Assembly: GCA_964647625.1 (NCBI GenBank)
Contig: CAZYHZ010000012.1
Span: 1 to 64,000, forward strand
DNA: 64,000 bases
Reading direction: 5' to 3'
Origin: an uncultured Acidobacteriota bacterium
GTDB taxonomy: Bacteria; Acidobacteriota; Polarisedimenticolia; Polarisedimenticolales; DASRJG01
The position numbers and the translations under genes were made by a program. The notes under the pieces are model-generated. The model did no database searches, had not been told where the DNA came from, and worked only from the letters and a program-made list of their open reading frames with translations. Of the stretch, positions 11,476-56,548 are shown piece after piece. Numbering within the stretch: the stretch's first letter is position 1; each line of letters starts with the position of its first letter.

Positions 11476-12249
11476 CTAACGGGTCATCTTCACCGCGCGA
11501 TCGTTCTGCGGCTGCACGGGACGCGCGTTTCCGGGGTAGCGCTTCCCGAACCGGTCGATCTCCGACGTGGAGACCGTCACGGGAGTCTTCATCACGAACC
11601 AGGTCACGCCTTCCGTGCACGGGGGCGTCGTCAGCGAGCCCTCGAACGTGTAGTACCCGCGCTCGCGGGGGAGCAGCCCGGCCGGATCGAGCGTCACCGC
11701 CGGGAAATCCGACGGCTCACCGCCGGCTTGCGGGAGCGAGCCCCACACCAGCTCGACCACGCCGTTGGAATCGCCGGATGTCAGGAGGACGGCGACCACC
11801 GCGAGGTGGCCCTTGTCGTCCTTGTGGACCAGGTGGACGACCATCGGAAACTCTTTGCCGTCGACGTGCTCCTCGCTCGGCTTGTGAAAATGGAACTGCA
11901 CGAGCGCGAATCGCTGCTTGCCCACGAGAATGCTGCTTCCCGGATCGACGTTCACCATGATCGTGTGGCCGTTGTCGACCACGTGCAGTCCGGTTCGCTT
12001 GTAGTCGAACTGGATCGGCGGCAGATCGGCCGGCTTCGCGTTGTGGATGTCGATCGGCGACTGACGATGCCCGTGCGAGCACGCGGCGAAGTCGCTCTCG
12101 AGATCGCCCCAGTGCTCGGGGCCGGTCGCACCGGTGTAACCCCAGTGGGGGGGTGTCGCATCCGCGTGCTCGGCGGCGCGGACGCCGGTCGCGGCGATGA
12201 TCGCGAGCAAGACGACTCCGATCGAGCCGAGCGATCGTACGAGACTCAT
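11476..12249 (-). CDS. cah: Alpha-class carbonic anhydrase, periplasmic
   Basis: Signal peptide plus the alpha-CA motifs QSPIDI, FHFHKPSEEHVDG and GSLTTPPCTEGVTW. Confidence 0.9.
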   Translation of the reverse strand: MSLVRSLGSIGVVLLAIIAATGVRAAEHADATPPHWGYTGATGPEHWGDLESDFAACSHGHRQSPIDIHNAKPADLPPIQFDYKRTGLHVVDNGHTIMVNVDPGSSILVGKQRFALVQFHFHKPSEEHVDGKEFPMVVHLVHKDDKGHLAVVAVLLTSGDSNGVVELVWGSLPQAGGEPSDFPAVTLDPAGLLPRERGYYTFEGSLTTPPCTEGVTWFVMKTPVTVSTSEIDRFGKRYPGNARPVQPQNDRAVKMTR

Positions 12250-23618: not shown

Positions 23619-24110
23619 TCAGGACCGGTACGCTTTCTCGAGCGCCGCGATGTCGAGCTTGATCATCCGCATCATCGCGTCGCTCACGCGTTTCGAGCGG
23701 ACCGGGTCTCTGTCGGCCATCATGTCGATCATTCGCGACGGAATGATCTGCCAGCGCAGTCCGAACCGGTCCATCAGCCAGCCGCACGCCTGCGGCTGCC
23801 CGCCGCCCGCGAGCAGCGCGTTCCAGTACGTGTCCAGCTCGCCCTGATCGTCGCAGATCACCATCATCGAGATCGCGTCGTTGAAGTCGTGGTGCGGACC
23901 GGCGCTCATCGCCTGGAACTTCTGCCCGAAGAGCATGAAGTCCACGACCTTCACCGATCCCGGCGGGCCCGACGGCGACTCGCTCATCATCGACGTCACG
24001 CGCTCGACACGGGAGTCCGGGAAGATCGACGCGTAGAACCTCGCTGCTTCTTCCGCCTCTTTCGCGTACCAAAAGAACGGAACGATCTTCTGCGTCACCT
24101 TGGACACCAT
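23619..24110 (-). CDS. VOC-family protein (glyoxalase/PhnB-like)
   Basis: ATG at 24110, 163 aa. The VPFFWYAKEAEEAARFYASIFPDS block is typical of the PhnB/3-demethylubiquinone-9 methyltransferase-like VOC family. Confidence 0.8.
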   Translation of the reverse strand: MVSKVTQKIVPFFWYAKEAEEAARFYASIFPDSRVERVTSMMSESPSGPPGSVKVVDFMLFGQKFQAMSAGPHHDFNDAISMMVICDDQGELDTYWNALLAGGGQPQACGWLMDRFGLRWQIIPSRMIDMMADRDPVRSKRVSDAMMRMIKLDIAALEKAYRS

Positions 24111-24121
24111 CGCCTCCTTTC

Positions 24122-24556
24122 TCAGCCCTTGTGGCGTCGCTCGATCTCGGCGCGCTGCCGCGCCTCCAGAGCCTGCAGCTCCGGGGTGTAGGCCTCGCCG
24201 AAGTCGGCCGGCTCGAAGACCGGCCGGATCTCGATCTCCGATTCTTCTCCGGGCATCGGATCGGGGCAGCGCCGTAGCCACTCGAGCGCCTCGTCCATCG
24301 ACCGCACCTGCCAGAGCCAGTAGCCCGCGACCAGCTCCTTGGTCTCCGCGAACGGCCCGTCGATGACGGTCTTCTTGCCGTTCGAAAAGCGCACGCGCTT
24401 GCCCCGGCTGCTCGGATGCAACCCTTCGCCGGCCAGCATGATCCCCGCCTTGACCAGCTCGTCGTTGAATTTCGTCATGTCCGTCAGGAGCTTCTCGCTC
24501 GGCATCAACCCGGCCTCGGAGTTCTTCGTCGCCTTCACCATCACCATGACTCGCAT
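24122..24556 (-). CDS. YciI-like (Dabb-fold) protein
   Basis: ATG at 24556, 144 aa. The protein is MRVMVMVKATK...GPFAETKELVAGYWLWQVRSMDEALEWLRRCP. This family is commonly co-operonic with ECF sigma factors. Confidence 0.8.
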   Translation of the reverse strand: MRVMVMVKATKNSEAGLMPSEKLLTDMTKFNDELVKAGIMLAGEGLHPSSRGKRVRFSNGKKTVIDGPFAETKELVAGYWLWQVRSMDEALEWLRRCPDPMPGEESEIEIRPVFEPADFGEAYTPELQALEARQRAEIERRHKG

Positions 24557-24803
24557 CGTCGTCTCCCTTCCGGAAGGTCGGTCGGGGCCAAAATCGGCTC
24601 GAATCGCCTTCCTTCCGTGATGGCGACGAACGAGCCGGCCCCGGATCGACACGTGCCCGAAAATTTTCTCCTGGAGGAACGGGAGCGGCAAGGGCCAGAT
24701 CGAGTTGGGGCTGCCGGGCCTGGGTTGGACGGCCTCGAGCCGCTTCTCGAGCGCGGGTTCCGTAAACTCGCCGCTCGTCTTGGTAAACGAGAAGCCTGCA
24801 GCG

Positions 24804-25106
24804 CTACTTCGCGGCCGGAAGCGACAGGATGTAGGCGGCAACCGCCGAAGCGTCCGCGGCGGAGAGCTTGACCGGCTTCATCTTGCCGATGCCGTGGTGC
24901 ACGACCTTTTCGATCGATGCCGCCGTCGCGGTCTTCTTGAACTCGGGGTCCTTGAAGTTCTTCGAGCCGGCACCGCTCTTCTTCGCGACCCCGTCGCTGC
25001 CGTGGCAGGCGCCGCATTTCTTTTGATACAGCGCTTTTCCGTCGGGCGAGGCGGATACGGAGCCGGCCAGGAGGAGGACGGCGGCAATCGCGGCGATGGT
25101 TTTCAT
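24804..25106 (-). CDS. Monoheme class I cytochrome c, periplasmic
   Basis: ATG at 25106 after an AAGGAG RBS. The protein has a signal peptide, a single CGACH haem motif and a distal Met. Size is 100 aa. Confidence 0.85.
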   Translation of the reverse strand: MKTIAAIAAVLLLAGSVSASPDGKALYQKKCGACHGSDGVAKKSGAGSKNFKDPEFKKTATAASIEKVVHHGIGKMKPVKLSAADASAVAAYILSLPAAK

Positions 25107-25117
25107 CGGAAACTCCT

Positions 25118-27355
25118 TCAGAACGAGTAGTTGAACAGGACTCGCGCCCACGTGAAGTCGTAGCCGGGAATCTGCGCGCCGAGGAACACGCTCTCGCTCG
25201 CGCCGCCGTCGAGAGCGCCCATCCACGGAATCATGACGTCGCGCTGGAAGTTGTCCTCGTTCCAGTTCTCGTGGGTCACGGCGAAGGTGAGACCCATCGA
25301 GGCGCGCATCTTCCACGTCACGCTCCCTTCGACGACGGTCAGGTCCGACCTGATGTCCGGGAACGATGTGGCGTCTCCACCGGGCGCTCCGCCGGGGTTG
25401 AACGACCCGGTTTGCCGTCCGGTCGCGTCGGTCTTGTTGGCGCGGAAGTCGAGAACGACCTTGCTCTTGGCCAGCAGCGCGGTGAGCCCGAGCCCGTAGT
25501 CGTGCGTCGTGTCGTCGGTGTCGATGAACCAGTCGTCCACCGCGTTTTCGATCTGCGCCAGGCGATAGCTCGACGCCATCGACCAACGGAACCGGTCCTG
25601 ACCGTAGTTGCCCGAGACCGTGACGCCCGAGCCGGCGTCCACGGCGAAGTCGACCGCCCAGCCGTCCGACTTGTCGGAGGTCCGGCCGAACGCGGTCGAA
25701 GGATAGTCGTCCTTGATCGTGTGAGCCTGCACCCCGAGATCGAGGCGCTCGACCGGGGTGAACGTCGCCATCAGGCTGTACTTGTCGCGGTCGCGGTTCG
25801 ACTGATCGAAGTTCTGCGTGCCCGCCGGATTGAACGGGGTTTCTTCGTCGTACGAGTCGTAACGGCGCTTTCCGTGGGCGTAAGCGATCCGGATGTTCCC
25901 CCAGGCGGCGGGAACCCAGCCGGCGGAGAGGTCGTAAAGATCTTCGTTGGTCGTCGGCGCGAAACGGAACTTCCGATCCCACGTCTCGCGCCCGGCGCCG
26001 GCCCCGAGCGTGAGCCCGTGTCCCGGACGGAATGCGACGCGGCCGCCGTACGAAAACGTCTTGTAAGCGAACGGTTCGGCGACGACCGCGGATCCCGCCA
26101 GCTCGACGTCCGCATTCACCCAGTCGGGCGTGAGGTACTCCGGCGTGTTGTTGTCGTAGTTGTACTCGTGCGCGAACGCCTCGAATGAAAACCAGCGCAG
26201 CGGCTGGCCGTTGAACCGGGCGTCCCAGCGCGTGATGTCGATCGACCCGTCGTAGGCGGTGACGGGATTCCCGTCCTTCAAGACGACGAGTGGCGTCGCC
26301 GGGACGATCGCGGAGTTCAGCGTGAACGGCAGGAACATCTCGTCCTGACGGTTCTGGCCGATGGAGTACTCGAAGCTCGCGCGCCCCCAGTCGGCGACGC
26401 GCACCCCGGCGTGCAGGTTGAGCCAGGCGGCGCGGCTGTCGGGCGGCGCCGACAGCATGAGCGTCGCGGCCGCAGCCGTCAGGTCGCCGAGTGAGGGCGT
26501 GCCGTCCGTGGATCGCAGCGGATTGTCCACGACGTACGCGTCGTGGAGCGTTCCGCTTCCGGTCTCGCTCGTCAGCCGGTTCGTGAACTGCGACCAGACC
26601 ACGGAGCCCCCGACGTCGAAGCGGTCGCGGGCGTAGTCGAGCCCCACCCGCGCCTCGCGGCTGATGAAGTCGGTCCGGCCGGCGAACTCGGAGACATCGG
26701 CGCCCACGGTGAAGTCCGTCGCCATCGACTGCGGGTGCGTGCCGTTCCGCTGCGCCTGCGTGAACCCCGCGTCGAACGTCAGACCCTGCACGGGCGTCCG
26801 CCAGGTGACGTCGCCCGACGCGGTGTCCCGGCGGCTGCGTAGATTCGGATACGATTGCGCGGCATCGAGAGCGGCCGAGAGGATCCCGCCGCGGGCAAAT
26901 CCGGGAGCGTTCTGGATGTCATCTCGGATCGGTTCCGGGAAGAGCATGCGTCCGCCACCCGCGGACGCGAACAGCGTCTTCGACGTGTTCGAGTACCAGT
27001 CCGGGATCTGATCGTAGCGGACGTGAGCGCGGAAGGCGCCGGGCTTGGCGACATCGAGATCCAGCCGTTGATCTTCTTGCAGCAAGTCGACGGCCGCCAG
27101 TCCGAACGTGACCCCCTTGGCCCCCGCGTCGAACGTCAACCTCTCGAGAAAGAATCCGTTCGGGATCTCGCGAAACTCTTGAGCCTTCGACGACTCGTTG
27201 AGATCGTCCACGGTCCCGAGCCCGATCGCGACGGTTCCTGCCGTCGACGGCGCGGGTGAGGGCGCGGGCGCCGGCTGGGGCGCATCCTCCGCGCGCGCGA
27301 CGATCGCAGCCGCTCCGACGATCAGGGCGAAGAGCCGGCGGCGCGTCTTCATCAT
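25118..27355 (-). CDS. MtrB/PioB/MtoB-family outer-membrane beta-barrel (porin partner of decaheme cytochrome)
   Basis: 745 aa with a signal peptide and Gly/aromatic-rich beta-strand periodicity. The C-terminus is ...VLFNYSF. It lies immediately downstream of the decaheme cytochrome gene. Confidence 0.8.
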   Translation of the reverse strand: MMKTRRRLFALIVGAAAIVARAEDAPQPAPAPSPAPSTAGTVAIGLGTVDDLNESSKAQEFREIPNGFFLERLTFDAGAKGVTFGLAAVDLLQEDQRLDLDVAKPGAFRAHVRYDQIPDWYSNTSKTLFASAGGGRMLFPEPIRDDIQNAPGFARGGILSAALDAAQSYPNLRSRRDTASGDVTWRTPVQGLTFDAGFTQAQRNGTHPQSMATDFTVGADVSEFAGRTDFISREARVGLDYARDRFDVGGSVVWSQFTNRLTSETGSGTLHDAYVVDNPLRSTDGTPSLGDLTAAAATLMLSAPPDSRAAWLNLHAGVRVADWGRASFEYSIGQNRQDEMFLPFTLNSAIVPATPLVVLKDGNPVTAYDGSIDITRWDARFNGQPLRWFSFEAFAHEYNYDNNTPEYLTPDWVNADVELAGSAVVAEPFAYKTFSYGGRVAFRPGHGLTLGAGAGRETWDRKFRFAPTTNEDLYDLSAGWVPAAWGNIRIAYAHGKRRYDSYDEETPFNPAGTQNFDQSNRDRDKYSLMATFTPVERLDLGVQAHTIKDDYPSTAFGRTSDKSDGWAVDFAVDAGSGVTVSGNYGQDRFRWSMASSYRLAQIENAVDDWFIDTDDTTHDYGLGLTALLAKSKVVLDFRANKTDATGRQTGSFNPGGAPGGDATSFPDIRSDLTVVEGSVTWKMRASMGLTFAVTHENWNEDNFQRDVMIPWMGALDGGASESVFLGAQIPGYDFTWARVLFNYSF

Positions 27356-27364
27356 CGCCCTCCG

Positions 27365-28222
27365 CTACCGCATCAACCGGCTGCCGCTCGGGTGATTCGA
27401 TCCGTGGATCGCCGGATGGCAGTTGATGCAGGCCCGATTGAAGACGAATCGGGACTGCGCGGTTTGGGGGATCGTCGGGTGCAAGTACCCGATATGGCAG
27501 CTCTGGCACAGCCGCGGCGCGGCGGCGACGAGCAGGTTGTCGTGAAGCGACCCGTGCGGGTCATGACAGTTCAGGCAGTTCTCCCGCACGGGAGGATGCT
27601 CGAAGAGGTTCGGCCCCCGTTTCTCGTCGTGGCAGCGGACGCAGTTGTCGTTGACCGACGCGTCGACGAGAAGCGCACGAGTCGAGGTGCCGTGCGGGTT
27701 GTGGCAGTCGGTGCACTGGAGCTTGCTCTCCCGAAGCGGCATGTGGCTCGACATCATCGTTCGCGTGCGCTGCATCTTGTGGCAGGTGAAGCAAACGTCG
27801 GATTGATCGGGCCGCTTCAAGAGGCCGGCGTTCCGTCCGTGCTCGTTGTGGATGGCGTGGCACGACAGGCACGACACGTCGTTTCGCTCGTGGACGGATC
27901 CCATCCACCCGCGGACGTGCGCTTGGTTGTGGCAGGCGAGGCACGTCTTGGCGCTCGCCTTCGCGTCGAGCTTCGCGGGATTGACGATCTTCGACGCCTC
28001 GCCGCCGCCGTCGACGTGCGCCTTCCCCGGGCCGTGGCACGACTCGCAATCGGGGACTCCGGGATGGTCCGCGAAGTGGCGAAGCGACTGCGCTTGGACG
28101 TCGTGACAGGTGACGCAGACATCGGCGCCGACGCGAGCGTTCGGGTCGGGACTCTCCGCAAACGCCGGCGCGGCCAGCAGCAGCGCGACGATTCCGGCGA
28201 TGACGAGCGGCCGACGCGTCAC
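27365..28222 (-). CDS. Decaheme c-type cytochrome (MtrA/PioA/MtoA/DmsE family)
   Basis: GTG start with a signal peptide. Ten CxxCH motifs are spread through the 285-aa protein: CVTCH, CESCH, CLACH, CLSCH, CFTCH, CTDCH, CVRCH, CLNCH, CQSCH and CINCH. Confidence 0.9.
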   Translation of the reverse strand: MTRRPLVIAGIVALLLAAPAFAESPDPNARVGADVCVTCHDVQAQSLRHFADHPGVPDCESCHGPGKAHVDGGGEASKIVNPAKLDAKASAKTCLACHNQAHVRGWMGSVHERNDVSCLSCHAIHNEHGRNAGLLKRPDQSDVCFTCHKMQRTRTMMSSHMPLRESKLQCTDCHNPHGTSTRALLVDASVNDNCVRCHDEKRGPNLFEHPPVRENCLNCHDPHGSLHDNLLVAAAPRLCQSCHIGYLHPTIPQTAQSRFVFNRACINCHPAIHGSNHPSGSRLMR

Positions 28223-28288
28223 GAAGCGTCCCCCGGATCCGGCTTTAATACCACCGGCGTCGCGAAAATCAAGAACGTTCTTCGTGGG

Positions 28289-28726
28289 CTACTCGACCAG
28301 CAGCTCACCGCCCCATTCGGCCGGATCGGAGTCGAAGATCGTCTCCGACAGCGTCCAGGGGTGTCCCCACGGGTCGACGAACGAGCACTGGCGCTCGCCG
28401 TACATGTGATCGGTGGGCTCGGCGAGGACGCGCGCACCCGCGGCCTTGGCGCGATCGAAGAGGCTGTCGATGCTCGTCACGCGAAGCATGACGACGTGCG
28501 CCCCCGCAGCCTGCAGCGTCGAGGGATCGGCCTCGGCATGCCCGCCGGGGTTGGCGACGATGAGGGCGCCGCCACCGTGGACGAGCTGGCAGCGATGGTC
28601 GCCGATGCGGAGCCGCGCAACGAACGGCAGCGCCGTCGTGAGCCACTCGACCGCTTTTCGAACGTCGGAGTAGTAGAGCACGGGGATCACGGCGGTGTCG
28701 GGCGCGGCACGGTTCTTCTTGAGCAT
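28289..28726 (-). CDS. VOC-family (glyoxalase/bleomycin-resistance) protein
   Basis: ATG at 28726 overlaps the arsC stop (TGATG). A 145-aa VOC-fold protein. Confidence 0.8.
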   Translation of the reverse strand: MLKKNRAAPDTAVIPVLYYSDVRKAVEWLTTALPFVARLRIGDHRCQLVHGGGALIVANPGGHAEADPSTLQAAGAHVVMLRVTSIDSLFDRAKAAGARVLAEPTDHMYGERQCSFVDPWGHPWTLSETIFDSDPAEWGGELLVE

Positions 28727-29163
28727 CACCGGCCGCCTTTCTCCGCCAGCCAACGGTCGATGCGCGCCGAGATCTCGTCGCGCGCAGCTCGGAACGCGTC
28801 GAGCTTCGCTTCCTCCGTCCCCTCGAACGCCGCCGGGTTTTCGACCGGCCAGAAGTCGCGCGTGATGACGCCCGGGAAGACGGCCGGGCATTTCTCATTC
28901 GCGTCATCGCAGACGATGATGAGGTGCCGAACGGGCAAGCGCCCGAGGTAATCCTTGACGCTTTTCGGCCGCTGGCTCGAGATGTCGATCCCGATCTCGC
29001 GCATCGCGGCCACGGCGAGCGGGTGAACGGAGGGCGCCGGCTCGATCCCGGCGCTGTGAACTTCGAAGTCGGTTCCCGTCTTCTTCCGCATGAGGCCTTC
29101 CGCCATCTGGCTCCGGGCGGAGTTTCCCGTGCACAGGAACAAGACGATGTGATTGAGACTCAT
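28726..29163 (-). CDS. arsC: Arsenate reductase, LMW-PTP (thioredoxin-coupled) type
   Basis: CTGNSARS P-loop in HIVLFLCTGNSARSQMAEG, plus the downstream Cys pattern of this family. Confidence 0.9.
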   Translation of the reverse strand: MSLNHIVLFLCTGNSARSQMAEGLMRKKTGTDFEVHSAGIEPAPSVHPLAVAAMREIGIDISSQRPKSVKDYLGRLPVRHLIIVCDDANEKCPAVFPGVITRDFWPVENPAAFEGTEEAKLDAFRAARDEISARIDRWLAEKGGR

Positions 29164-29215
29164 GCGTCCTCCACAGTCGGTTGCGCTGATTCCATTATTC
29201 TACTACTATCGAAAT

Positions 29216-29599
29216 ATGAAATCCACGGCAGGCGCCAGAACAAGGGCGGATGCGACCGTTCGCTATGCGGAGATGTTCGCGGCCCTCGGAAACGAAAGCC
29301 GGCTCCGCATTCTCAGGGTGCTCCTGTCCGCCCATCCCGATGGAATGGTAGCCGGGGACATCCAGGCCGAGATCGACATCCCGCCTTCGACGCTGTCGCA
29401 CCACCTGGAAAAACTGAGGGTGGAAGGCCTCGCCACGGTGAAACGGGAGAGCACGTTCCTTCGCTACGCCGCGAACACCGAGGCCCTCCAGGAGCTGCTC
29501 GGCTTCCTCTTCGCCGAGTGCTGCTCGAGGAGCAAGGCCGTGAGCGCCGAATCGATCGTGAAGCTTTCCGAGATTCGAACCCACCGGAGGTCATCGTGA
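29216..29599 (+). CDS. arsR: ArsR/SmtB family metalloregulator
   Basis: ATG at 29216. A winged HTH (ESRLRILRVLLSAHPDGMVAGDIQAEIDIPPSTLSHHLEKL) and C-terminal Cys pair (ECC) are present. The stop overlaps the arsM start (GTGA). Confidence 0.9.
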   Translation: MKSTAGARTRADATVRYAEMFAALGNESRLRILRVLLSAHPDGMVAGDIQAEIDIPPSTLSHHLEKLRVEGLATVKRESTFLRYAANTEALQELLGFLFAECCSRSKAVSAESIVKLSEIRTHRRSS

Positions 29600-30444
29600 G
29601 CGGAGACCTCAAAAGCGCAGTCAAAAAGAAGTACGCCGAGGCGGCGACGCTCGCGGCTCAGGGCGAGGCGGCGTCGTGCTGCGGCGAGTCGTGCGGCTGC
29701 GCGAGCGACGCGCAGGCGATCGACCCCATCACCTCCAACCTTTATACCGACCACGAGAAAGACTCCGTCCCCGAAGGCGCGCTCCGCGCGTCGCTCGGCT
29801 GCGGCAACCCGACCGCTCTGGCGGAGCTGCATCCCGGCGAAATCGTCCTCGACCTCGGCTCGGGCGGCGGGATCGACGTCATCCTCTCCGCCCGCCGCGT
29901 CGGGCCGGCAGGAAAGGCCTACGGCCTCGACATGACCGACGAGATGCTGGCGCTCGCAAGGCGAAACCAGGCCGACGCGGGAGTCGAAAACGTCGAGTTC
30001 CTGAAAGGGGAGATCGAAGATATCCCCCTACCGGACGCCGCCGTCGACGTCGTCATCTCGAACTGTGTGATCAATCTATCGGCCGACAAGGACAAGGTGC
30101 TCCGCGAGGCGTTCCGCGTGCTCAAGCCCGGCGGCCGGTTCGCCGTGTCCGACGTCGTCGTTCAGGGCGAGGTGCCGGCCGACATCCGCCGAAGCGTCGA
30201 GCTTTGGGTCGGCTGCGTCGCCGGCGCGCTGGAAGAGAACGAGTACAAGGCCAAGCTCGAGCGCGCCGGGTTCGGATCGGTCTCATTCGAAGCAACCCGC
30301 GTCTACAAGCTCGAGGACGCCCGCGAATTCCTGTCGGCGCGCGGGATCGATGTGGTGGACGCCGCCCCGAAGGTCGAAGGCAAGTTCAGGAGCGCGTTCA
30401 TTCGCGCAGTGAAGCCGGGCCAACGCCCTCGCAGTATTACTTGA
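29596..30444 (+). CDS. arsM: Arsenite S-adenosylmethionine methyltransferase
   Basis: GTG at 29596, 5 nt after GGAGG. A Cys-rich N-terminus ([12 protein letters not shown]) and the SAM motif [12 protein letters not shown] are present, plus a conserved Cys in [10 protein letters not shown]. This is typical of ArsM. Confidence 0.9.
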
Positions 30445-42448: not shown

Positions 42449-44326
42449 CTATTTGTCCGACGGGTTCGTCGCGACGCGACGTGGGTCCGCTTCTCGAAGG
42501 GCGGTGAACTTCCACAGGCTGGCGGCCGCCGAATGACGCACACCCGGATCCCGGTCGTTCAGCAACGCCTTCAGCTGGGGCGTGAACTGCCTGACGGCAG
42601 CGGGTCCCATGGCCCCCACCTTCTCGGCCGCCCCACGCCTGATCTGTGCGCTGGAGTCGTTCAGCTCCTCCAAGATGCTCTGAACGGCCGACTTGTCGTT
42701 GTCGCTGAAATAGCCGATCGCACTGAGCGCATCGACGGTCTTGAGGCGAACCGACTGGTCGGGGTCGTTCAGCAGGGGCGAAATCTCGGTGCTGAACTTC
42801 GCGGCGCTCGAGGGATCATGAGCGGCGGCGTAGGTAAACGCGGCGAGCGCGCTCCCGCGAACGGCGCTGTTCGAGTCTCTCAGGAGTCCGGTCACCTCGG
42901 TCAGACGTGGAATGGTCGACGAAGTGCCGAGGCTTCCGAAGGCCGTTGCCGCGCTTCCACGGACCGAGGCGTCCGGATCCCGAAGCAGCGAGACGAATTC
43001 CGATGCGTAAGGCGCGGCCGCCTGGTCGCCCAGGGACGAGAGGTCGGTGACCGCCTTCGCGCGCACCACTGGGCTGGGCGATTTCATGAGCGACGCGAGC
43101 GTGTCTGCGCTCGGGTGCGTCACTTGCCACCACCGGAGGGCCCCCAGACCTAACATGACGAATAGAACACTGGCTGATCCGAGCCAGGCTCGCCGCCTGA
43201 GGCGCGTTGACTTGGACTTGAGCGTCTCGATGTGCAGCTGAGCTTCACGGGCCGACTGTTCCGCTTGCTCGGCGCGGACCGCGGCCTCCCGAGCCACTTC
43301 CCGGGCGTGGGAAAGCTCGACTCGCTGGTTCGCGACCTCTGCGTGCGTGGCCGTTTCTTCGAGGGCGGTCCAGTCCAGGCGATTCGACAGAAGCGTTGCC
43401 AGCCTGGCGTACGCCGCGCCGAGCGATGTCGGATCCAGTCGCTCCCGCTCGCTCTCCAGGACGGGGATTCGCTCACCGAAGCTCCAGCCGGCGACGTAGG
43501 GGATGAAGAGCCGGTTCAACGCGTCCGACGGGGCGACGTCATGGGGCAGCCACTCCCGGTAGAGATCGCTGAATTCCTCCGCGAAGATGCGCTGCCATTC
43601 GAGCGACTTGTCGTACTCCTTGTCCCGTTCGTCCCTCGCCGGAACGGGCACCCCCAGCAATTTGTTACGGTTCACCGGCAGCTTGGAGCGCGCACTGATT
43701 GCACGTGCCATCACGTTCTTGATTCCGGCGATGTTTTGGAAATTCGTCACGAAAAGGAGGACCAGCACATCCGGCAGGATCACCGTGCAAACGTCGCCGA
43801 TGTCCGTGATTCCCGTCCGGCTGTCGACCAGGATGAAGTCGTACGATTCACGCCATTCGTTCCGCAATGCGTCGATGTGGTTCCCGATGTTGTGATGGCG
43901 GTACAACGTGTCCCAGTCGAGTTGCTGGATGCGCTGCCGGTAGTCATCGCCGCGGCGCCCCGCCGAGATGATGTCGATCGGGTGGCCGAACACATCCGCC
44001 GTCAAGCGGCAGTTTCGCCAGTCGAGTGGCGCGCCCTTGCCGTACCCCTCGACGACGTCGACGACGCCGGGCGTTTTCGCCGGGTCGCCCACGAGCCGGC
44101 CGGACTTCTCGAAATAAATCTCGAGACCCGGCGCCTCGAGATCCCAATCGATGAGCAGGACACGATGACCTGCGGCCGCCATGACCGCACCGACGTTGGC
44201 GAGCGCCATCGAGCGGCCCACGCCGCCCTTGTAGGAATAGAACGTATAAACGAGGCCGAGGGGGTTCTCGGTAGATCCATCAATCACCGGCAGGCCTCCT
44301 GATCGGCTGTTCCGGTGTGACTCCAT
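42449..44326 (-). CDS. KGGVGR-motif ParA/MinD-like P-loop ATPase, then coiled-coil, TM and C-terminal HEAT/PBS-lyase repeats
   Basis: Deviant Walker A (YSYKGGVGRSMALANVGAVMA), coiled-coil, TM (AWLGSASVLFVMLGLGAL) and HEAT repeats (VRAKAVTDLSSLGD...). An alternative GTG start at 44287 overlaps the TIR stop (GTGATTGA). Confidence 0.85.
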   Translation of the reverse strand: MESHRNSRSGGLPVIDGSTENPLGLVYTFYSYKGGVGRSMALANVGAVMAAAGHRVLLIDWDLEAPGLEIYFEKSGRLVGDPAKTPGVVDVVEGYGKGAPLDWRNCRLTADVFGHPIDIISAGRRGDDYRQRIQQLDWDTLYRHHNIGNHIDALRNEWRESYDFILVDSRTGITDIGDVCTVILPDVLVLLFVTNFQNIAGIKNVMARAISARSKLPVNRNKLLGVPVPARDERDKEYDKSLEWQRIFAEEFSDLYREWLPHDVAPSDALNRLFIPYVAGWSFGERIPVLESERERLDPTSLGAAYARLATLLSNRLDWTALEETATHAEVANQRVELSHAREVAREAAVRAEQAEQSAREAQLHIETLKSKSTRLRRRAWLGSASVLFVMLGLGALRWWQVTHPSADTLASLMKSPSPVVRAKAVTDLSSLGDQAAAPYASEFVSLLRDPDASVRGSAATAFGSLGTSSTIPRLTEVTGLLRDSNSAVRGSALAAFTYAAAHDPSSAAKFSTEISPLLNDPDQSVRLKTVDALSAIGYFSDNDKSAVQSILEELNDSSAQIRRGAAEKVGAMGPAAVRQFTPQLKALLNDRDPGVRHSAAASLWKFTALREADPRRVATNPSDK

Positions 44327-44861
44327 CCTCGGGGACTTCGACGACGGGGAACCCGTCGTCGTAGGGAGGCGCGTTGAGGATCGTCTGGGCGAGCTCGTGC
44401 GCGAACGGCTTCAGGATCTGATTCTCGAAATCGACGGCGGATTCCGTCTTCCAAAACATCGGCAGAGTCGATGTGAACTGACTGAAGTCCCGAGAATGCT
44501 TCGCCGTGGCGAGCGCCGGGAAGGATTCGCCGTCAAAGTACCGCACCGGGACCACGAGGTCGCAATGAGCAACACGCTCGCGCTCGACGAAGGTCATCCA
44601 CTCCGAAACGCACCAGCGGGATCGGAAGTACAGGGGCGACCAGACGCACAGGATGCAGCGTGACCGCTTGAGCGAATCCGCCATCTTCTTTCGCCAGTCG
44701 ACGCCTGTCTTGATGTCCTCGGTATCGAAGAATATCTGGACGTCCTGGCGCTGAAGCTCCAGCTTCAACCAATAGTGCAGCTTGGTCTTGACGGTCTCAT
44801 GCCACGCGTCGCTTTCCCGGTCGCGCTTGTAGCTGAAGAAAACGTCGTACAGATAGTCCAA
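44280..44861 (-). CDS. TIR-domain protein
   Basis: TTG start, 5 nt after GAGGTG. TIR motifs are YDVFFSYKRD and SRCILCVWSPLYFRSRWCVSEW. Confidence 0.88.
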   Translation of the reverse strand: MDYLYDVFFSYKRDRESDAWHETVKTKLHYWLKLELQRQDVQIFFDTEDIKTGVDWRKKMADSLKRSRCILCVWSPLYFRSRWCVSEWMTFVERERVAHCDLVVPVRYFDGESFPALATAKHSRDFSQFTSTLPMFWKTESAVDFENQILKPFAHELAQTILNAPPYDDGFPVVEVPEDGVTPEQPIRRPAGD

Positions 44862-44997: not shown

Positions 44998-45873
44998 CTA
45001 GACTCGCCGGGCCACCCACGATCGATGCTCCCGGGAAACGACGGCCTCGACGTCATTGACCAATCGCGCCAGATCGGCCTCGCTCTGAACTCCTTGGGCG
45101 CGCGATTTCAGCTCGTTGAGGTCGCTGTGCGCGGCGCTGTAGGCGCCCGCCAGCTCCGAGAACTTCTTGGCCTGGGACCACGCCAAAAGGCAGGCCGATA
45201 GGGCCGCCACGGCCCCGGTCGGGTTGTATTCGCGGATGACGAACATACGGGACGCCGCGGCGATGATCGCGAGGACCTCGAGCACGGTGATCGCCCGGAA
45301 CGAAATTGAATCCGCAACCGCGTTCGCCTTCGCGCTCTCGCGGTACCAGTCGATCTGGTCCTGGAGGCGGTGCGTCGAATAGACGTCCGTCCGCTCCGCC
45401 AGCGTCATCGACCGGAGCCGCAGCATCGCGGGAGTGATCTCGTCCCCGGAGACGCCGAACCGCGCGATGTGTGCGTCCATCCGGGGAAAGCGCCGCCGCA
45501 GTTGGTGAAGCTCATCCAAGAAACTCTCGGCGTCTTCGGCTCCGCCCGGCCTCATCACGAATCGCCACGTTGCGGCCTTGACGCTCTCGGCGATCGCCCT
45601 CGTGCGGAACCATCTGTCGTCCAGCGCGGCCAATTTGAGCGTCAACGTCAACACCAACGCGAAAAACATCAAAATCGCAATCAGCCCGTCGACCCGATGC
45701 GCGAGCGGCAGGTCGCGTGGTGACCAGGCCGACAGGAATGCCGTCGCGCCCAGCAGCAGAAGGTGCGCTCCGAGCCAACGTAGATAGGAGCGCTGATAGG
45801 CCCGCGCGGCCGCAGAGCTCGACTGCAAGATCGCGGGGCCACCCTGCAGCGGGCTTACAGACGCCTTGGGCAT
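44998..45873 (-). CDS. SLATT-domain (DUF4231) membrane protein
   Basis: ATG at 45873, 6 nt after GGAGAA. The conserved block is YQRSYLRWLGAHLL...2TM...LDDRWFRTRAIAESVKAATWRF. The ORF-track start at 46086 is an extension. Confidence 0.75.
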   Translation of the reverse strand: MPKASVSPLQGGPAILQSSSAAARAYQRSYLRWLGAHLLLLGATAFLSAWSPRDLPLAHRVDGLIAILMFFALVLTLTLKLAALDDRWFRTRAIAESVKAATWRFVMRPGGAEDAESFLDELHQLRRRFPRMDAHIARFGVSGDEITPAMLRLRSMTLAERTDVYSTHRLQDQIDWYRESAKANAVADSISFRAITVLEVLAIIAAASRMFVIREYNPTGAVAALSACLLAWSQAKKFSELAGAYSAAHSDLNELKSRAQGVQSEADLARLVNDVEAVVSREHRSWVARRV

Positions 45874-45993
45874 ACATTCTCCGAACCGATTGCGCTCTGA
45901 TGCGGTATGATCCCGGTCAGATAGCCACCCGAGGAATCGGGCATCCCGCCCAATTCGAAACGGTGCACGTCTTACCACAGCGGGGTCACCATC

Positions 45994-48246
45994 GTGTACG
46001 TCCTCAGCAAAGATCCAAGATTCAACAGCCTCTCCGTGGCGGATCTTCTCGAAGCGCGTGATCTCTATCACACGCATCTGATCCACAAGAGGAACGTCGT
46101 CGGCACGGCGATCGGCCGGTACCTCATCCGGAAGGACGACAGTGCGCGGCGCAGCGACGGCTCCAAGCCCGAGCGCCGTTTCGACAACTCAGAGATCAAA
46201 GATTGGTCGTGGCCCTGCGTGATCGTACTCGTCGACCAATGGGAGGACTCGGCGGCGCCCTACGACCTGGTTCCCAAGACGCTCTATCTGCCTGACGGAC
46301 GAAGCGTGCCCGTCTGCCTCGTCCTCGTGGATCGACAACCCCACGATGGATCGAAGATCCCGCATTGGGTCTGGCCCGACGGTTTGTGGGGCGGGGGCAT
46401 GCCTCTCATCGTCGATGCTCAACGCATCGAGCGAGTCGCAAGCTCCGGCTGCCTCGTGAGCGACGGTCACACCCTCTACGTGTTGACCAACCGGCATGTG
46501 TGCGGAAACCCGGGCCAGGCCGTGTACACCCTGCAATCGGGGCGACGCAAGCTCGTTGGTCACGCCAGCGACAAGCAGCTGACCCGGAGGGCGTTCAAGA
46601 AGGTGTACACGGGTTACGTTGGCCGCCAGACGTGGCTGAACCTCGACGTCGGTCTGGTCGAGCTCGACGACGCCAGTGCGTGGACGTCGCAGGTGTACGG
46701 GCTTGGCCCTGTGGGCCAGCTCGCCGACCTCAGCGAGATCAACATCAGCCTGCGTCTCATCGACGAGCCCGTGGTGGCACACGGAGCGGCCTCCGGTCAG
46801 CTCGATGGAAAGATCATGGCGTTGTTCTATCGGTATCGGTCCGTGGGCGGGTTCGAGTACGTGGCCGATCTCTTGATCGCTCCTCCCGGTCGCGGAAAGC
46901 TCCAAACGCAACCGGGAGACTCGGGAACGATTTGGCATCTTCGAGACACCGATACCAAGAAGCTGCTGCCTCTCGCCATCGAGTGGGGCGGCCAGACGAT
47001 CGCCGATCCGCAAGCCGGGGGCCTCGTCAATTTCGCGCTCGCCACCAACCTGAGCACCGTGTGCCGTCTCCTCGATGTCGACGTCGTGGGCGACCACAAC
47101 GTCGGCGTTGCGCCCTACTGGGGGCAAACGGGTCACTACAGCATCGGATCGCTTGCGTGCGACCTCGTATCGTCGAAGAACCTTTCTCAGCTCATGACTT
47201 CGAATCGTGATCGGATCGCGTTCGCTACCGCCGAGCTGAATCCGGCGGACATCGGGGACGCGATCAAGACCGCGAAAACGGACGCCGGATTCATTCCGCT
47301 CGCGGACGTTCCCGATCTCGTCTGGAAGACGCTCGTCGGAAAAGTTGCCGGCGGCCGAGATCCGTACCGTGGCGCCAAGGGGCGCTCGAACGGCCCGGAG
47401 CATCCGACCCATTACGCCGACATCGACGAGGAGCGCGAGAGCGACGGCAAGACCCTGCGTCAGTTGTGTATGGAAGATCCGTCGAACGTCGACGTGGAGG
47501 TGTGGAAAAAGTTCTACACCGACCTTGGCCACACAGAGTACGGGAAACGCGGTCTCCTTCCATTCCGGGTGTGGCAGTTCTACGACGCGATGATCGCCGC
47601 GGTGAAGTCCAAGAAGCTCGATGAGTTCGTTTGCGCGGCCGGTCTCGTCTCGCACTACGTCGGCGACGCCTGTCAACCGCTCCACGGCTCGAAGCTGGCC
47701 GACGGATACGCCGATCAGCCAACCACGGTGGAGCACACCCGAAGGGCGACGGGCGAGACCTACGAGGAGGACTCGCACGTCGGTGCGGGAGTGCATTCCG
47801 CGTACGAGACGAACATGGTCGACCGGTTCGCATCGGAGCTGGTGGCCGGTCTGACAAAGGCGATCAAGGAGCCTTCGAAGGGGCCCAAGCCGGTCGCATC
47901 GGGGCATGAAGCGGCCGCGGCCATCGTCGCTCTGATGGATCGCACTGCGAAACGCCTTCCGCCGGAACAGCTCATACAGACGTATCTCAAGGCCGGCGGA
48001 AAGAAGGCCGTCGCCGTTTACGAAGCGCTCTGGGATGCGTATGGCGACGCGACCATCGAGACGATGCTCGATGGGTCGCAGGTCCTGGCGATGATTTGGG
48101 ACAGCGCGTGGTCGGCAGGGAAGGGCGATTCGATTCCCCAGGGGTCGTTGGCGGCGATCAAGAAGGAGACGTTGCAGGAGCTGTACGAGAACACGGAGTT
48201 CGTCCCGTCGCTCGACCTGGATCACATCGGCGCCGTCCTGAAATGA
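45994..48246 (+). CDS. Fusion protein: N-terminal trypsin-like serine protease domain plus C-terminal S1/P1-nuclease (Zn-dependent PLC/nuclease) domain
   Basis: GTG start. Trypsin catalytic elements are TNRHV (His), DVGLVEL (Asp) and GDSGTIWH (Ser). The C-terminal SHYVGDACQPLH matches the S1-P1 nuclease HxxGDxxQPxH signature. Confidence 0.85.
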   Translation: MYVLSKDPRFNSLSVADLLEARDLYHTHLIHKRNVVGTAIGRYLIRKDDSARRSDGSKPERRFDNSEIKDWSWPCVIVLVDQWEDSAAPYDLVPKTLYLPDGRSVPVCLVLVDRQPHDGSKIPHWVWPDGLWGGGMPLIVDAQRIERVASSGCLVSDGHTLYVLTNRHVCGNPGQAVYTLQSGRRKLVGHASDKQLTRRAFKKVYTGYVGRQTWLNLDVGLVELDDASAWTSQVYGLGPVGQLADLSEINISLRLIDEPVVAHGAASGQLDGKIMALFYRYRSVGGFEYVADLLIAPPGRGKLQTQPGDSGTIWHLRDTDTKKLLPLAIEWGGQTIADPQAGGLVNFALATNLSTVCRLLDVDVVGDHNVGVAPYWGQTGHYSIGSLACDLVSSKNLSQLMTSNRDRIAFATAELNPADIGDAIKTAKTDAGFIPLADVPDLVWKTLVGKVAGGRDPYRGAKGRSNGPEHPTHYADIDEERESDGKTLRQLCMEDPSNVDVEVWKKFYTDLGHTEYGKRGLLPFRVWQFYDAMIAAVKSKKLDEFVCAAGLVSHYVGDACQPLHGSKLADGYADQPTTVEHTRRATGETYEEDSHVGAGVHSAYETNMVDRFASELVAGLTKAIKEPSKGPKPVASGHEAAAAIVALMDRTAKRLPPEQLIQTYLKAGGKKAVAVYEALWDAYGDATIETMLDGSQVLAMIWDSAWSAGKGDSIPQGSLAAIKKETLQELYENTEFVPSLDLDHIGAVLK

Positions 48247-55117: not shown

Positions 55118-56548
55118 TTACTTGGCCTGCAGACGACGAATGCCGGCCATGACATCGGGCGCGATTCGACTCTGCAGCTTGTGGGTGGTCAATTCATCGA
55201 GTGCGGATCGATAGGAATCCAATGCACCCGTGGTTTGTCCCGCGAGTTCTTGAAGCTGCGCCAACATGAAATGGAACGTCGGTCGCTTTTCTTCCGGAAC
55301 GACGTGTATCGGGAAGAGCCACGAGAAGGTCCGCAAGTGGTCGGCCGGTGGGACGATCTTCAGAAACACCGCCCGATCGCGCTGAGCAACGAGGCGGTCG
55401 TAGTAGACGTTCCAAATGTCCCACAGCGAAGTATCCGTCTCGTTCGAGATCGGGAACGGAAAGTCCTCGGCGTTGGCGCTCATCTCTGAGAGCACGCGCA
55501 CCAAGCCGGCTTGCAGCGGCAAATCGGCGGTCAGCAGATGCCCGCGAAGCTCCATACGTCGGACGTAGGTCCGCTCCCGCTCGGAGGCCACCGCTCTAGA
55601 AAAATGAACCTCGGCATCTGCGATCGAGCCATTCGACGTTAGGATGAAGTAGCCCCACATCGCATGCGCGAACGGATTGTCGGCGTCTCGCTCGATCGCT
55701 CGCTCGTAGTACACCGTCGGATCGATCCGCGTGACCACGTCCTTCGACCGGAGATACGCCGCCCAACCTAGATGCGCGAGCGCGTCCGCCGCGCGCTTGG
55801 CGTCTTTCGCTCCCGCCGCTCGAACGAGCGTCGGTTCCACCTTGGCGGCGACGTCCGTGAACGTTTCGGTTCGGACGATCGCGTGGACGTTGTCGAGCCA
55901 ATCCATCGCCACGCCCTCACAGCCGAGTCGCACCACATCGCTTTCCCCGTCGAGGGCGAGCGCGGTGGAGCAACGATCCCACGCCGCGGTGTAGTTCGAC
56001 GACTTCCGGTCGAGATCCGCATGGGCGACGAGCCGCGCCGCCTCCTGGCGGGACTCCAGTCGGAGGTACCCGCGCCACAGCCCGAGTCCCCCGGCGATCG
56101 CGAGGACCGTCAGGATTAGGGCGACGCGAACCGATCTGCCGAGCGACCAGCGCGAGTGCCCGAATCGGCGGACCGCGTCCCCAACCTCGGCCGCGACGTT
56201 TCCCTGCGGTTCCAGAATCACGACCGCGCGCAGGTAGGGAGGGATGGCGGTGCGATCGACGTGCCGCACGACTACGGGTAGGACTCGTCCCGCGGGATTG
56301 GGCCACTTTTCCTCGGCAAATCGAATCTCGCTGAGGGTATAGCGACCCGCCGCCACGGCTTCCGGGCTCAGCAGGAACACGAACAGGTCGGCGTCTCGGA
56401 TCGCATCGCAGATTCGCTCGTCGTAGGCGCCGCCTTCGGTGAGATCCGAGGCATCGAGGAAGACTTCATCGCCGTCCTCGCGGAGGGCCAGCGCGATTTC
56501 CTCGGCGATCGTGCGCTGCTCCGAAGCGTGGGACAGGAAGATCTTCAA
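55118..56548 (-). CDS. TIR-domain membrane protein (N-terminal TIR, one TM, C-terminal domain of unknown function)
   Basis: TTG start, 6 nt after GAGG. The TIR reads KIFLSHASEQRTIAEEIALALREDGDEVFLDASDL...DADLFVFLLSPEAVAAGRYTLSEIRFA. The TM is VALILTVLAIAGGLGLW. Confidence 0.85.
   Translation of the reverse strand: MKIFLSHASEQRTIAEEIALALREDGDEVFLDASDLTEGGAYDERICDAIRDADLFVFLLSPEAVAAGRYTLSEIRFAEEKWPNPAGRVLPVVVRHVDRTAIPPYLRAVVILEPQGNVAAEVGDAVRRFGHSRWSLGRSVRVALILTVLAIAGGLGLWRGYLRLESRQEAARLVAHADLDRKSSNYTAAWDRCSTALALDGESDVVRLGCEGVAMDWLDNVHAIVRTETFTDVAAKVEPTLVRAAGAKDAKRAADALAHLGWAAYLRSKDVVTRIDPTVYYERAIERDADNPFAHAMWGYFILTSNGSIADAEVHFSRAVASERERTYVRRMELRGHLLTADLPLQAGLVRVLSEMSANAEDFPFPISNETDTSLWDIWNVYYDRLVAQRDRAVFLKIVPPADHLRTFSWLFPIHVVPEEKRPTFHFMLAQLQELAGQTTGALDSYRSALDELTTHKLQSRIAPDVMAGIRRLQAK

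Follow-up and report, generated by a model that had tools for sequence, protein, structure and literature searches.

Porin-cytochrome conduits let bacteria breathe or feed on minerals and underpin iron cycling and bioelectrochemistry. The question raised by the locus described here is whether three neighbouring genes of an uncultured acidobacterial lineage encode such a conduit, which partner would serve it in the periplasm, and in which direction electrons would flow through it. Our analysis covers a stretch of 64 kb, referred to below as the window, and follows an original prediction of a porin-cytochrome electron-transfer module at this position.

A three-gene operon

The gene content proved to be as predicted: a 285-aa protein with ten CxxCH motifs, a large outer-membrane protein with the expected ...NYSF terminus (...LFNYSF), and a 100-aa class I cytochrome c with one CxxCH as the third gene (Table 1). 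These three genes form one operon. The TAG stop of the decahaem gene (ending at 27365) and the ATG of the barrel gene (27355) are separated by 9 nt with GGAGGG inside, and the barrel stop is separated from the ATG of the cytochrome c gene by 11 nt with GGAG inside. The GC3 of all three genes is 0.85-0.88, the coding signature of this genome, each product carries a signal peptide, and public assemblies contain identical proteins. Of all ORFs of 50 aa or longer in the six frames of the window, only four others bear CxxCH, each with two motifs at most and all of them low-GC3 shadow ORFs, so the motif count of the decahaem protein is far above chance. A consensus scan of 24000-29400 found no promoter-like site, and the candidate promoter listed in Table 1 is thus a lead and no more.

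Table 1. Features of the porin-cytochrome operon, with positions in the window.
Feature	Coordinates	Strand	Remarks
Decahaem c-type cytochrome, MtrA/MtoA/PioA/DmsE family, periplasmic/trans-barrel	27365..28222	-	285 aa; GTG start
MtrB/PioB-family outer-membrane beta-barrel sheath	25118..27355	-	745 aa; C-terminal ...NYSF beta-signal; no cysteine
Monohaem class I cytochrome c, periplasmic	24804..25106	-	100 aa; lysine-rich; CGACH and GxGKMKP
RBS GGAGGG of barrel gene, within 9-nt gap	27358..27363	-	read from sequence
RBS GGAG of cytochrome c gene, within 11-nt gap	25113..25116	-	read from sequence
RBS GGGGGA of decahaem gene, 6 nt upstream of GTG	28229..28234	-	read from sequence
Candidate promoter TTGATT-16 nt-TATTAA, weak	28245..28272	-	by eye; in 66-nt AT-richer gap upstream of decahaem gene

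The decahaem cytochrome

The 285-aa protein belongs to the DmsE/MtrA family described by the NCBIfam model TIGR03508, which it matches at 238.3 bits (cut-off 192.2) over profile positions 1-258 of 258. Its CxxCH motifs are at residues 36, 59, 94, 118, 144, 170, 194, 216, 239 and 265, and every one of its 20 cysteines lies inside them. Three matches to PF09699 (Paired_CXXCH_1) were also found, and the Geobacter-named GSU2203 decahaem model scores 227, under its cut-off of 325. Residues 31-285 align with MtrA of S. baltica (6r2q_A) at 41% identity (E 2e-53), and the two proteins agree in each of the ten haem motifs and in the distal histidines. Outside the motifs, histidines 69, 111, 160, 177, 209, 223, 248 and 273 show 97-100% conservation across 118 sequences; H125 and H277 likewise match MtrA. 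In the signal peptide, MTRRPLVIAGIVALLLAAPAFA/ESP, an n-region, an h-region and an AxA region can be read from the sequence. In an NJ tree the protein groups in a clade made up mostly of Acidobacteriota, from which the PioA-like alphaproteobacterial loci are separate and Shewanella MtrA is distant. In this tree a proxy, the alphaproteobacterial clade with Rhodovulum sp. PH10 and Bradyrhizobium, stands in for canonical PioA, and canonical MtoA is not represented.

Two other readings of the locus have to be weighed against these results. The first is that there is no conduit, and that the cytochrome is an NrfB-like periplasmic multihaem protein beside a generic porin, or the locus a decaying remnant. 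Weak secondary matches of the decahaem to NrfB-like, c3 and c7 Pfam models lean this way, but the protein has ten haems and not five, is collinear with MtrA over its full length, and falls in the TIGR03508 decahaem family, not in a pentahaem family, as the original prediction expected. The second is a DmsEF-like conduit that serves an extracellular non-metal terminal reductase (a surface DMSO reductase or other molybdo-enzyme) and not minerals. The best NCBIfam model does carry the DmsE name, and MtrAB-type cores serve DmsAB in Shewanella (PMC8805035). However, no molybdopterin oxidoreductase or Fe-S subunit gene was found in the operon, in the 64 kb window or adjacent to the module in the closest relatives, and we regard this second reading as highly improbable.

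The outer-membrane barrel

The barrel protein matches the Pfam model PF11854 (MtrB_PioB) end to end (residues 73-745, profile positions 24-635 of 635) at 236 bits, far above the cut-off of 23. It stays under the cut-off of the NCBIfam model TIGR03509 (171.7 bits against 240), which has to be counted against the conduit reading and gives the reading without a conduit a second point in its favor. The fold speaks against that reading. The AF2 model (pLDDT 79.5, pTM 0.75) has about 26 long strands, and our parsing of its DSSP string gives 26 transmembrane strands, or 28 when residues 260-306 are counted; MtrB has 26 (PMC10654088). The best Foldseek match of the model is MtrB (6r2q_B, E 7.9e-36, TM 0.76/0.87, 720 columns), and the next are TonB-dependent receptors with TM of 0.40 or less. 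The protein is a large beta-barrel, as had been predicted, and in the modelled structure MtrB is its sole strong match.

In sequence the barrel is far more distant. It is only 16% identical to MtrB, and although an exhaustive search returned 959 cluster-50 representatives at E <= 1e-3, only 3 of them are full-length at 39% identity or more; judged by sequence it appears to sit in a small divergent sub-branch of the MtrB/PioB family. The signal peptide reads ...AAIVARA/ED. Since the barrel has no cysteine at all, it is without the N-terminal CXXC of Shewanella MtrB; S. oneidensis needs C42 of this motif to reduce Fe(III) (PMC12175506). The motif is also absent from 21 of 21 aligned relatives.

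The small cytochrome c

The third protein matches PF13442 (49 bits) and PF00034 (36 bits), and its signal peptide reads ...AGSVSA/SPDG. The AF2 model (pLDDT 84) finds its best folds in Kuenenia c-552 and Bacillus pasteurii c-553 (TMt 0.80-0.82), and the family profile matches 7o38 in the PDB (E 9e-14). The family is small, of about 21 clusters, and C31, C34, H35 and M76 are invariant in 21 members; CGACH is the haem site and GxGKMKP, with M76, the Met-ligand motif. The gene arrangement had been called MtoD-like, and this part of the original prediction did not hold. MtoD is a bis-His class I monohaem cytochrome and mtoD lies upstream of mtoA (PMC4412085); in the cytochrome described here a Met ligand is invariant, its gene follows that of the barrel, and no similarity to MtoD was detectable. 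MtoD (4XXL) was absent from the phmmer matches at E <= 10, from the 60 of 144 profile matches listed, and from the top 50 Foldseek matches. PmcA of Sideroxydans (Slit_2494) is, by its description, closer than MtoD both in its Met axial ligand motif and in its position downstream of the barrel (PMC13390432).

The genomic context was examined for six of the 21 family members, and all six adjoin genes for haem-based electron transfer. Four of them (P0149, P0154, P0155 and P0157) are on the same contigs as a porin-cytochrome gene of the clade found in the window. The remaining two adjoin NapC/NirT-like or NrfHA cytochromes, one of the two also being divergent from a porin-cytochrome pair, and in L090 a family member is operonic with NrfHA. 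Together with PmcA, which is a His/Met monohaem cytochrome of the mto cluster and binds both MtoA and the NapC/NirT protein ImoA (PMC13390432), this context supports a role as a shuttle.

Conservation of the neighbourhood

In 66 of 80 related genome loci the decahaem gene is directly followed by a barrel gene, and the triad is a conserved unit. A cytochrome c follows the barrel in L087 (70% identity for both barrel and cytochrome c) and in L082 (62% for the barrel, 64% for the cytochrome c). The three ORFs are intact and conserved at 62-80% identity in other metagenomes. Intact genes with signal peptides and ribosome binding sites, conserved elsewhere and kept adjacent, are not what a decaying remnant or a chance pairing with a generic porin would look like, and we consider the reading without a conduit essentially refuted.

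The relatives, both close and more distant ones, also offer candidates for an inner-membrane partner. A hexahaem NapC/NirT-like membrane protein adjoins the module or its cytochrome c in L082 (475 aa), L089 (382 aa) and the P0130 contig (464 aa). In some relatives a cytochrome b and an NNT-like protein adjoin it, and in many proteobacterial relatives a gene for a ~208-aa tetrahaem CymA-like protein comes after the barrel. No gene of CymA/MtoC-like type or for another NapC/NirT-family inner-membrane cytochrome was found within the 64 kb window; such genes were seen in the relatives.

Comparison with known systems

As in the Mto system of the neutrophilic Fe(II) oxidiser Sideroxydans lithotrophicus ES-1, the decahaem and an MtrB/PioB-family barrel are adjacent and in the same order, MtrC is lacking, and the cluster includes a gene for a small class I cytochrome with one haem. 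Relatives of the module, like Sideroxydans with its ImoA, also have a membrane cytochrome of NapC/NirT type, but theirs is a hexahaem protein of 382-475 aa and not a tetrahaem one of ~200 aa. Unlike the mto cluster, the operon in the window has no NapC/NirT gene and the window has no bis-His MtoD-type cytochrome upstream, and the host is acidobacterial and not betaproteobacterial. The PioABC system of Rhodopseudomonas palustris TIE-1 (phototrophic Fe(II) oxidation) also combines a decahaem, a barrel and then a small soluble carrier without MtrC. However, the third gene here encodes a c-type cytochrome and not a HiPIP, and no HiPIP (PioC) gene was found in the 64 kb window, every flanking gene being assigned to some other family. 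In PioA a long stretch without haem, of roughly 200-270 aa, extends the N-terminus (PMC10654088). The decahaem lacks this extension, its first haem motif being at residue 36 of 285, and stands apart from the PioA-like proxy clade of the NJ tree.

With MtrCAB of Shewanella (6R2Q) the module shares the MtrA-like decahaem and, in the modelled structure, a barrel that superposes on MtrB. It differs from MtrCAB, beyond the divergent barrel, in having no MtrC/OmcA surface decahaem in the window, a monohaem periplasmic partner where Shewanella has tetrahaem STC/FccA, and no CymA nearby. In the Geobacter Pcc conduit (OmbB-OmaB-OmcB) a porin likewise sheathes a periplasmic multihaem cytochrome, but its families are unrelated (octahaem OmaB, a smaller porin and a dodecahaem surface lipoprotein) and the proteins described here match Mtr-type models.

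A proposed conduit

With TIGR03508 above its cut-off, PF11854 matched end to end and the MtrB fold, the module reading of the original prediction is borne out. We are highly confident that the three genes together encode, as one operon, an electron conduit across the outer membrane (MtrAB/MtoAB/PioAB type) and a periplasmic partner. Sec signal peptides would export all three proteins, and the 745-aa protein would form a barrel of ~26 strands in the outer membrane. The 285-aa cytochrome would thread this barrel, its ten bis-His c-haems spanning the distance from the periplasm to the cell surface. The lysine-rich 100-aa His/Met cytochrome c may then act as a diffusible periplasmic shuttle that joins the inner end of this wire to an inner-membrane or periplasmic redox enzyme encoded outside the window. 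By analogy with the relatives, the enzyme could be a NapC/NirT-like hexahaem protein, a cytochrome b or Rieske/b complex, or NrfHA.

Direction of electron flow

The original prediction held that direction cannot be read from sequence, which agrees with the literature (PMC8805035). Our preference, at somewhat better than an even chance, is for electron uptake by oxidation of Fe(II) or minerals. It is based on the lack of MtrC in the window, the lack of the MtrB CXXC motif in the barrel and the monohaem partner. Further, where a two-component module that has no extracellular cytochrome has been characterised (PioAB and MtoAB), it acts in uptake (PMC8805035).

Several points count against uptake. 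MtoA and PioA form no function-specific clades and MtrCAB can run in reverse (PMC8805035). His/Met ligation leaves the potential of the small cytochrome unfixed, given that PmcA has a potential of -143 mV (PMC13390432). The window has no gene for an inner-membrane partner, an oxidase, carbon fixation or a photosystem. The NapC/NirT-like and cytochrome b modules of the relatives are equally typical of outward quinol-oxidising chains (CymA, CbcL-like). To our knowledge, the cultured Acidobacteriota noted for exchanging electrons with the outside, Geothrix among them, reduce Fe(III).

The last two points also favor a less probable but still credible alternative, in which the same conduit runs outward. 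Quinol electrons would pass through an unlinked quinol dehydrogenase of NapC/NirT or b/c type and the small cytochrome to the decahaem, which would reduce extracellular Fe(III), Mn(IV), humics or soluble shuttles. The CymA-like gene after the barrel in proteobacterial relatives fits this alternative, as does MtrA being the closest solved structure. Set against it, no MtrC/OmcA-type or other multihaem gene was found elsewhere in the 64 kb window (one elsewhere in the genome is possible), and the barrel is without CXXC. The periplasmic shuttles of Shewanella (STC/FccA) and Geobacter, whose PpcA is of this kind, are multihaem and not monohaem class I proteins. A NapC/NirT partner is found in the mto cluster of an Fe(II) oxidiser as well (ImoA, PMC13390432). 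Condition-dependent use in both directions takes up the small remaining share of probability.

Implications

The module is a two-component conduit of the MtoAB/PioAB type with a putative periplasmic shuttle. PioA/MtoA homologues have already been reported in Acidobacteria, so the overall picture is unchanged. What the locus adds is a well-resolved, intact example from an uncultured acidobacterial lineage, and a small family of cytochromes c, not characterised before, that accompanies porin-cytochrome conduits as well as NapC/NirT-like or Nrf cytochromes. This family is a candidate for the poorly known periplasmic step outside Proteobacteria.

A bolder and rather doubtful extension of the uptake reading is that the triad of decahaem, divergent barrel without cysteine and dedicated lysine-rich His/Met cytochrome c is a distinct acidobacterial electron-uptake system of three parts. 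In it the cytochrome c would pass electrons from extracellular Fe(II) straight to periplasmic sinks such as NrfHA, which is operonic with the family member in L090. If true, soil or sediment Acidobacteriota would couple the oxidation of Fe(II) to nitrite ammonification, and we know of no demonstrated Fe(II) oxidation in this phylum.

On this same bolder reading, the ars island that adjoins the module could hint at a connection with habitats of Fe/As redox chemistry.

The operon and its decahaem cytochrome

The three minus-strand open reading frames listed at the head of the table have exactly the lengths, spacing and NYSF ending that the original prediction described, and they form an operon. 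They are separated by gaps of 9 and 11 nt, the first holding a Shine-Dalgarno-like GGAGGG and the second a GGAG, with GGGGGA before the GTG start of the decahaem gene. The GC3 of the three genes (0.85-0.88) is typical of real genes here. All three proteins carry export signals, namely Sec-like signal peptides with cleavage at AFA/E, ARA/E and VSA/S, as read by eye from the sequence. A consensus scan of positions 24000-29400 returned no promoter-like sites and no minus-strand terminators; a candidate TTGATT-N16-TATTAA upstream of the decahaem gene, inside the 66-nt gap, was spotted by eye only.

Features in the 64,000-nt window, with coordinates on the forward strand
Feature	Position	Strand	Remarks
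Decahaem cytochrome, 285 aa	27365-28222	-	ten CxxCH motifs
Outer-membrane barrel, 745 aa	25118-27355	-	C-terminus ...LFNYSF
Small cytochrome c, 100 aa	24804-25106	-	one CGACH
Glyoxalase-fold protein	28289-28720	-	directly upstream of operon
ArsC-like LMW phosphatase	28726-29163	-	ars cluster
ArsR	29153-29599	+	ars cluster
ArsM	29608-30444	+	NF008823, 360 bits (cut-off 263)
ParA/HEAT protein	42449-44326		PDC-M28B match
TIR protein	44280-44861		
SLATT_1/SLATT_3 protein	44998-46086		
PADLOC 'trypsin-like' protein, 750 aa	45994-48246		
Endonuclease_NS + TPR-S + Trypsin_2 protein, 1124 aa	51255-54629		
TIR protein	55118-56548		
TPR protein	57262-58548		TIR-effector match
Secreted protein, 1892 aa	30437-36115		
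Secreted protein, 863 aa	19759-22350		
Carbonic anhydrase	11476-12249		

Ten haem motifs within 285 residues cannot be chance. They use all 20 cysteines of the protein, and in a six-frame scan of the 64 kb CxxCH occurs in only four other ORFs, at most twice in each, all of them low-GC3 shadow ORFs. The decahaem cytochrome covers the whole of the TIGR03508 profile (DmsE-family decahaem) at 238 bits, above the cut-off of 192, and from residue 31 to its C-terminal end it aligns with Shewanella baltica MtrA (chain A of the MtrCAB structure 6r2q; E 2e-53). Identity to MtrA is 41% in a 118-sequence alignment, where all ten haem motifs coincide and the non-motif histidines 69, 111, 160, 177, 209, 223, 248 and 273 are 97-100% conserved. 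The protein carries an intact ten-haem, bis-His ligand set. A place in an unrelated multihaem family (e.g. NrfB-like), which would have spoken against the original prediction, is ruled out by the number of haems, the TIGR03508 score and the collinearity with MtrA. The Geobacter-named GSU2203 and GSU2204 families were also rejected, both matches falling below cut-off (227 against 325 and 30 against 350).

An NJ tree without bootstraps, in which canonical MtoA, PioA and DmsE were represented by loci of labelled taxonomy and by an MtrA sequence reconstructed from the 6r2q alignment, places the decahaem within an Acidobacteriota-dominated clade. This clade is apart from the Rhodanobacteraceae and from an alphaproteobacterial clade (Rhodovulum sp. 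PH10, Bradyrhizobium) that we took as PioA-like, and Shewanella MtrA is its distant outgroup.

The barrel

The barrel matches the Pfam MtrB_PioB family end to end (236 bits) but stays below the cut-off of the stricter NCBIfam model (171.7 against 240), and its sequence match to MtrB is marginal (E 2e-8, N-terminus only). The AlphaFold2 model, made from a 22-sequence alignment, is a large barrel (pLDDT 79.5, pTM 0.75). By our reading of the DSSP string it has 26 transmembrane strands joined by short turns on the periplasmic side, and 28 when the poorly modelled residues 260-306 are included. In Foldseek its sole strong match is MtrB (6r2q_B; E 8e-36, TM 0.76/0.87 over 720 columns at 16% identity), and all others, which are TonB-dependent receptors, have a TM of at most 0.40. 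The protein is therefore an MtrB-like barrel, and the predicted beta-barrel topology stands. The Foldseek table titles 6r2q 'Structure of the Mtr complex', while the sequence table names its chains A and B 'Cystathionine beta-synthase' and 'Uncharacterized protein', which are depositor or UniProt label artefacts.

Of 959 cluster-50 representatives in the barrel family (E <= 1e-3), only three full-length ones are at least 39% identical to the barrel of the window, which makes it a small divergent sub-branch. It has no cysteine at all and thus no CXXC motif; in S. oneidensis, Fe(III) reduction depends on C42 of this motif in MtrB (PMC12175506).

Comparison with known systems and relatives

The module belongs to the porin-cytochrome systems of the MtrAB/MtoAB/PioAB kind. 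It differs from MtrCAB in having neither MtrC nor a CXXC in the barrel, from PioABC in having no HiPIP and a decahaem without the N-terminal extension of PioA, and from the full Mto cluster in lacking a NapC/NirT gene and an MtoD-type cytochrome. A haem-motif scan and Pfam, NCBIfam and PADLOC searches on about 45 ORFs found no CymA/NapC, MtrC, HiPIP, bc1, oxidase or Cyc2 in the 64 kb, nor any further c-type cytochrome or quinol dehydrogenase. Homologues of PioA/MtoA in Acidobacteria have been reported before (PMC10654088), so the module was correctly identified at the outset but is of a kind already known.

The triad is conserved. Among the NCBI and Logan assemblies that contain proteins identical to those of the window is an 86.5-kb contig. 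The nearest named relatives are in Ca. Polarisedimenticolaceae, with 70% identity for the decahaem and 55% for the barrel, together with other Acidobacteriota MAGs; the Acidobacteriota-like affiliation is based on these named homologues, and the best match within the GTDB representative set is 61% identical. Of 80 genome loci, 66 keep the order decahaem then barrel. In many alphaproteobacterial relatives the barrel gene is followed by one for a tetrahaem protein of about 208 aa, which is the classical mtoAB-cymA layout. Beside acidobacterial porin-cytochrome pairs there recurs a membrane-anchored hexahaem NapC/NirT-like protein with five CxxCH and one Cx3CH (382-475 aa, far larger than CymA or ImoA), found for example at L082 7581-9008 and L089 3131-4279, loci between which it is 59% identical. 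It appears to be uncharacterised so far. In another relative, with a barrel at 53% identity (L088, 2216-9987), genes for a Fer4/Pyr_redox oxidoreductase, a Rieske protein, a cytochrome b, a 669-aa octahaem cytochrome and a monohaem cytochrome c immediately precede the pair, and this cluster may be a complete quinone-to-surface chain.

The small cytochrome c

By its Pfam matches (PF13442, PF00034) the third protein belongs to the class I cytochromes c. In its AlphaFold2 model (pLDDT 84) the fold is similar to those of Kuenenia c-552 and of Bacillus pasteurii c-553 (TMt 0.80-0.82). The arrangement had been called MtoD-like, but no similarity to MtoD was detected by phmmer at E <= 10, among the matches listed in a profile search against the PDB, or in the top 50 Foldseek matches of the model, and this part of the original prediction is not borne out. 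The family is small, with 21 clusters at 44-100% identity that without exception share C31, C34, H35 and a G-x-G-K-M-K-P motif; many lysines are conserved as well. The Met of this motif aligns with that of GKNKMP in Kuenenia c-552, where the distal ligand is Met (PMC10654088), so the haem is His/Met ligated, whereas MtoD is bis-His with a potential of +155 mV (PMC4412085).

Only the closest relatives, L087 (barrel 70%, cytochrome 70% identical) and L082 (62% and 64%), have the gene 3' of the barrel; it is absent from this position in L084, L088 and L002, with barrels 51-55% identical to that of the window. Genomic context was checked for six of the 21 family members, and all six have an electron-transfer setting. 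Four share a contig with a porin-cytochrome gene of the window's clade: P0155 with decahaem P0002, and P0149, P0154 and P0157 with barrels P0122, P0123 and P0124. This placement comes from gene tables for P0154 (L087) and P0157 (L082) and, for P0149 and P0155, from contigs of equal length. On a JGI contig the genes ahead of the small cytochrome encode a cytochrome b (Ni_hydr_CYTB) and a NapC/NirT-like protein of 470 aa. At L090 (565-2811) a cytochrome 60% identical to ours is followed immediately and in the same orientation by nrfH and a CxxCH-type nrfA, with an Rrf2 regulator and a fragment of a decahaem alongside. L089 3131-8318 is syntenic with L090, and there the same cytochrome is divergent from an operon that encodes the hexahaem protein together with a more distant pair of decahaem (45%) and barrel (25%). 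The arrangement at these two loci suggests a periplasmic link between conduit and nitrite ammonification. This small conserved family of His/Met cytochromes co-travelling with such conduits is a modest addition to what is known of them.

Mechanism and direction of electron flow

By analogy with the 6R2Q paradigm and PMC10654088, the barrel would sheathe the decahaem, which would span the outer membrane. The small cytochrome may shuttle electrons between the periplasmic end of this wire and a redox partner, in the inner membrane or the periplasm, that is encoded elsewhere. We propose this role because of its genomic association and because PmcA, a His/Met monohaem cytochrome of the Sideroxydans mto cluster, binds MtoA as well as ImoA, a NapC/NirT protein (PMC13390432).

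The original prediction held that the direction of flow cannot be told from sequence, which agrees with the literature: MtoA and PioA form no function-specific clades and MtrCAB is reversible (PMC8805035). We lean slightly towards electron uptake, given the absence of MtrC from the 64 kb, the cysteine-free barrel without CXXC, the link of one small cytochrome family member to the periplasmic electron sink NrfHA, and the monohaem class I partner, which is as in Fe(II)-oxidiser clusters and unlike the multihaem shuttles of metal reducers. Against uptake, His/Met ligation is no predictor of potential (PmcA is at -143 mV), and the NapC/NirT-like and cytochrome b modules of relatives are as in outward, quinol-oxidising chains. 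To our knowledge, moreover, the cultured Fe-active Acidobacteriota are reducers. We consider it rather unlikely that the conduit works outward, and the small remaining probability falls to a conditional use in both directions.

Surroundings of the operon

The operon is immediately preceded by an arsenic-resistance cluster, whose glyoxalase-fold protein could be a candidate ArsI-like C-As lyase. The ars genes are not conserved beside the operon in relatives, and their being part of the module is unsupported. On the downstream side are YCII, a PF06983 protein (3-demethylubiquinone-9 3-methyltransferase family) and an ECF sigma factor with DUF6596. Conflict-system domains are densely packed between 42449 and 58548, which gives this region the appearance of a defence island. 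The window also encodes two giant secreted repeat proteins. In the larger, a Kelch propeller array precedes numerous Cys-rich 'Dicty_CTDC' repeats (CDDGNxCTxDxC), and the other is a beta-propeller protein (DUF5122) whose tail is Cys-rich. The carbonic anhydrase is of the eukaryotic type (alpha; Pfam E 7e-41) and adjoins LpxR and MFS_3 genes.
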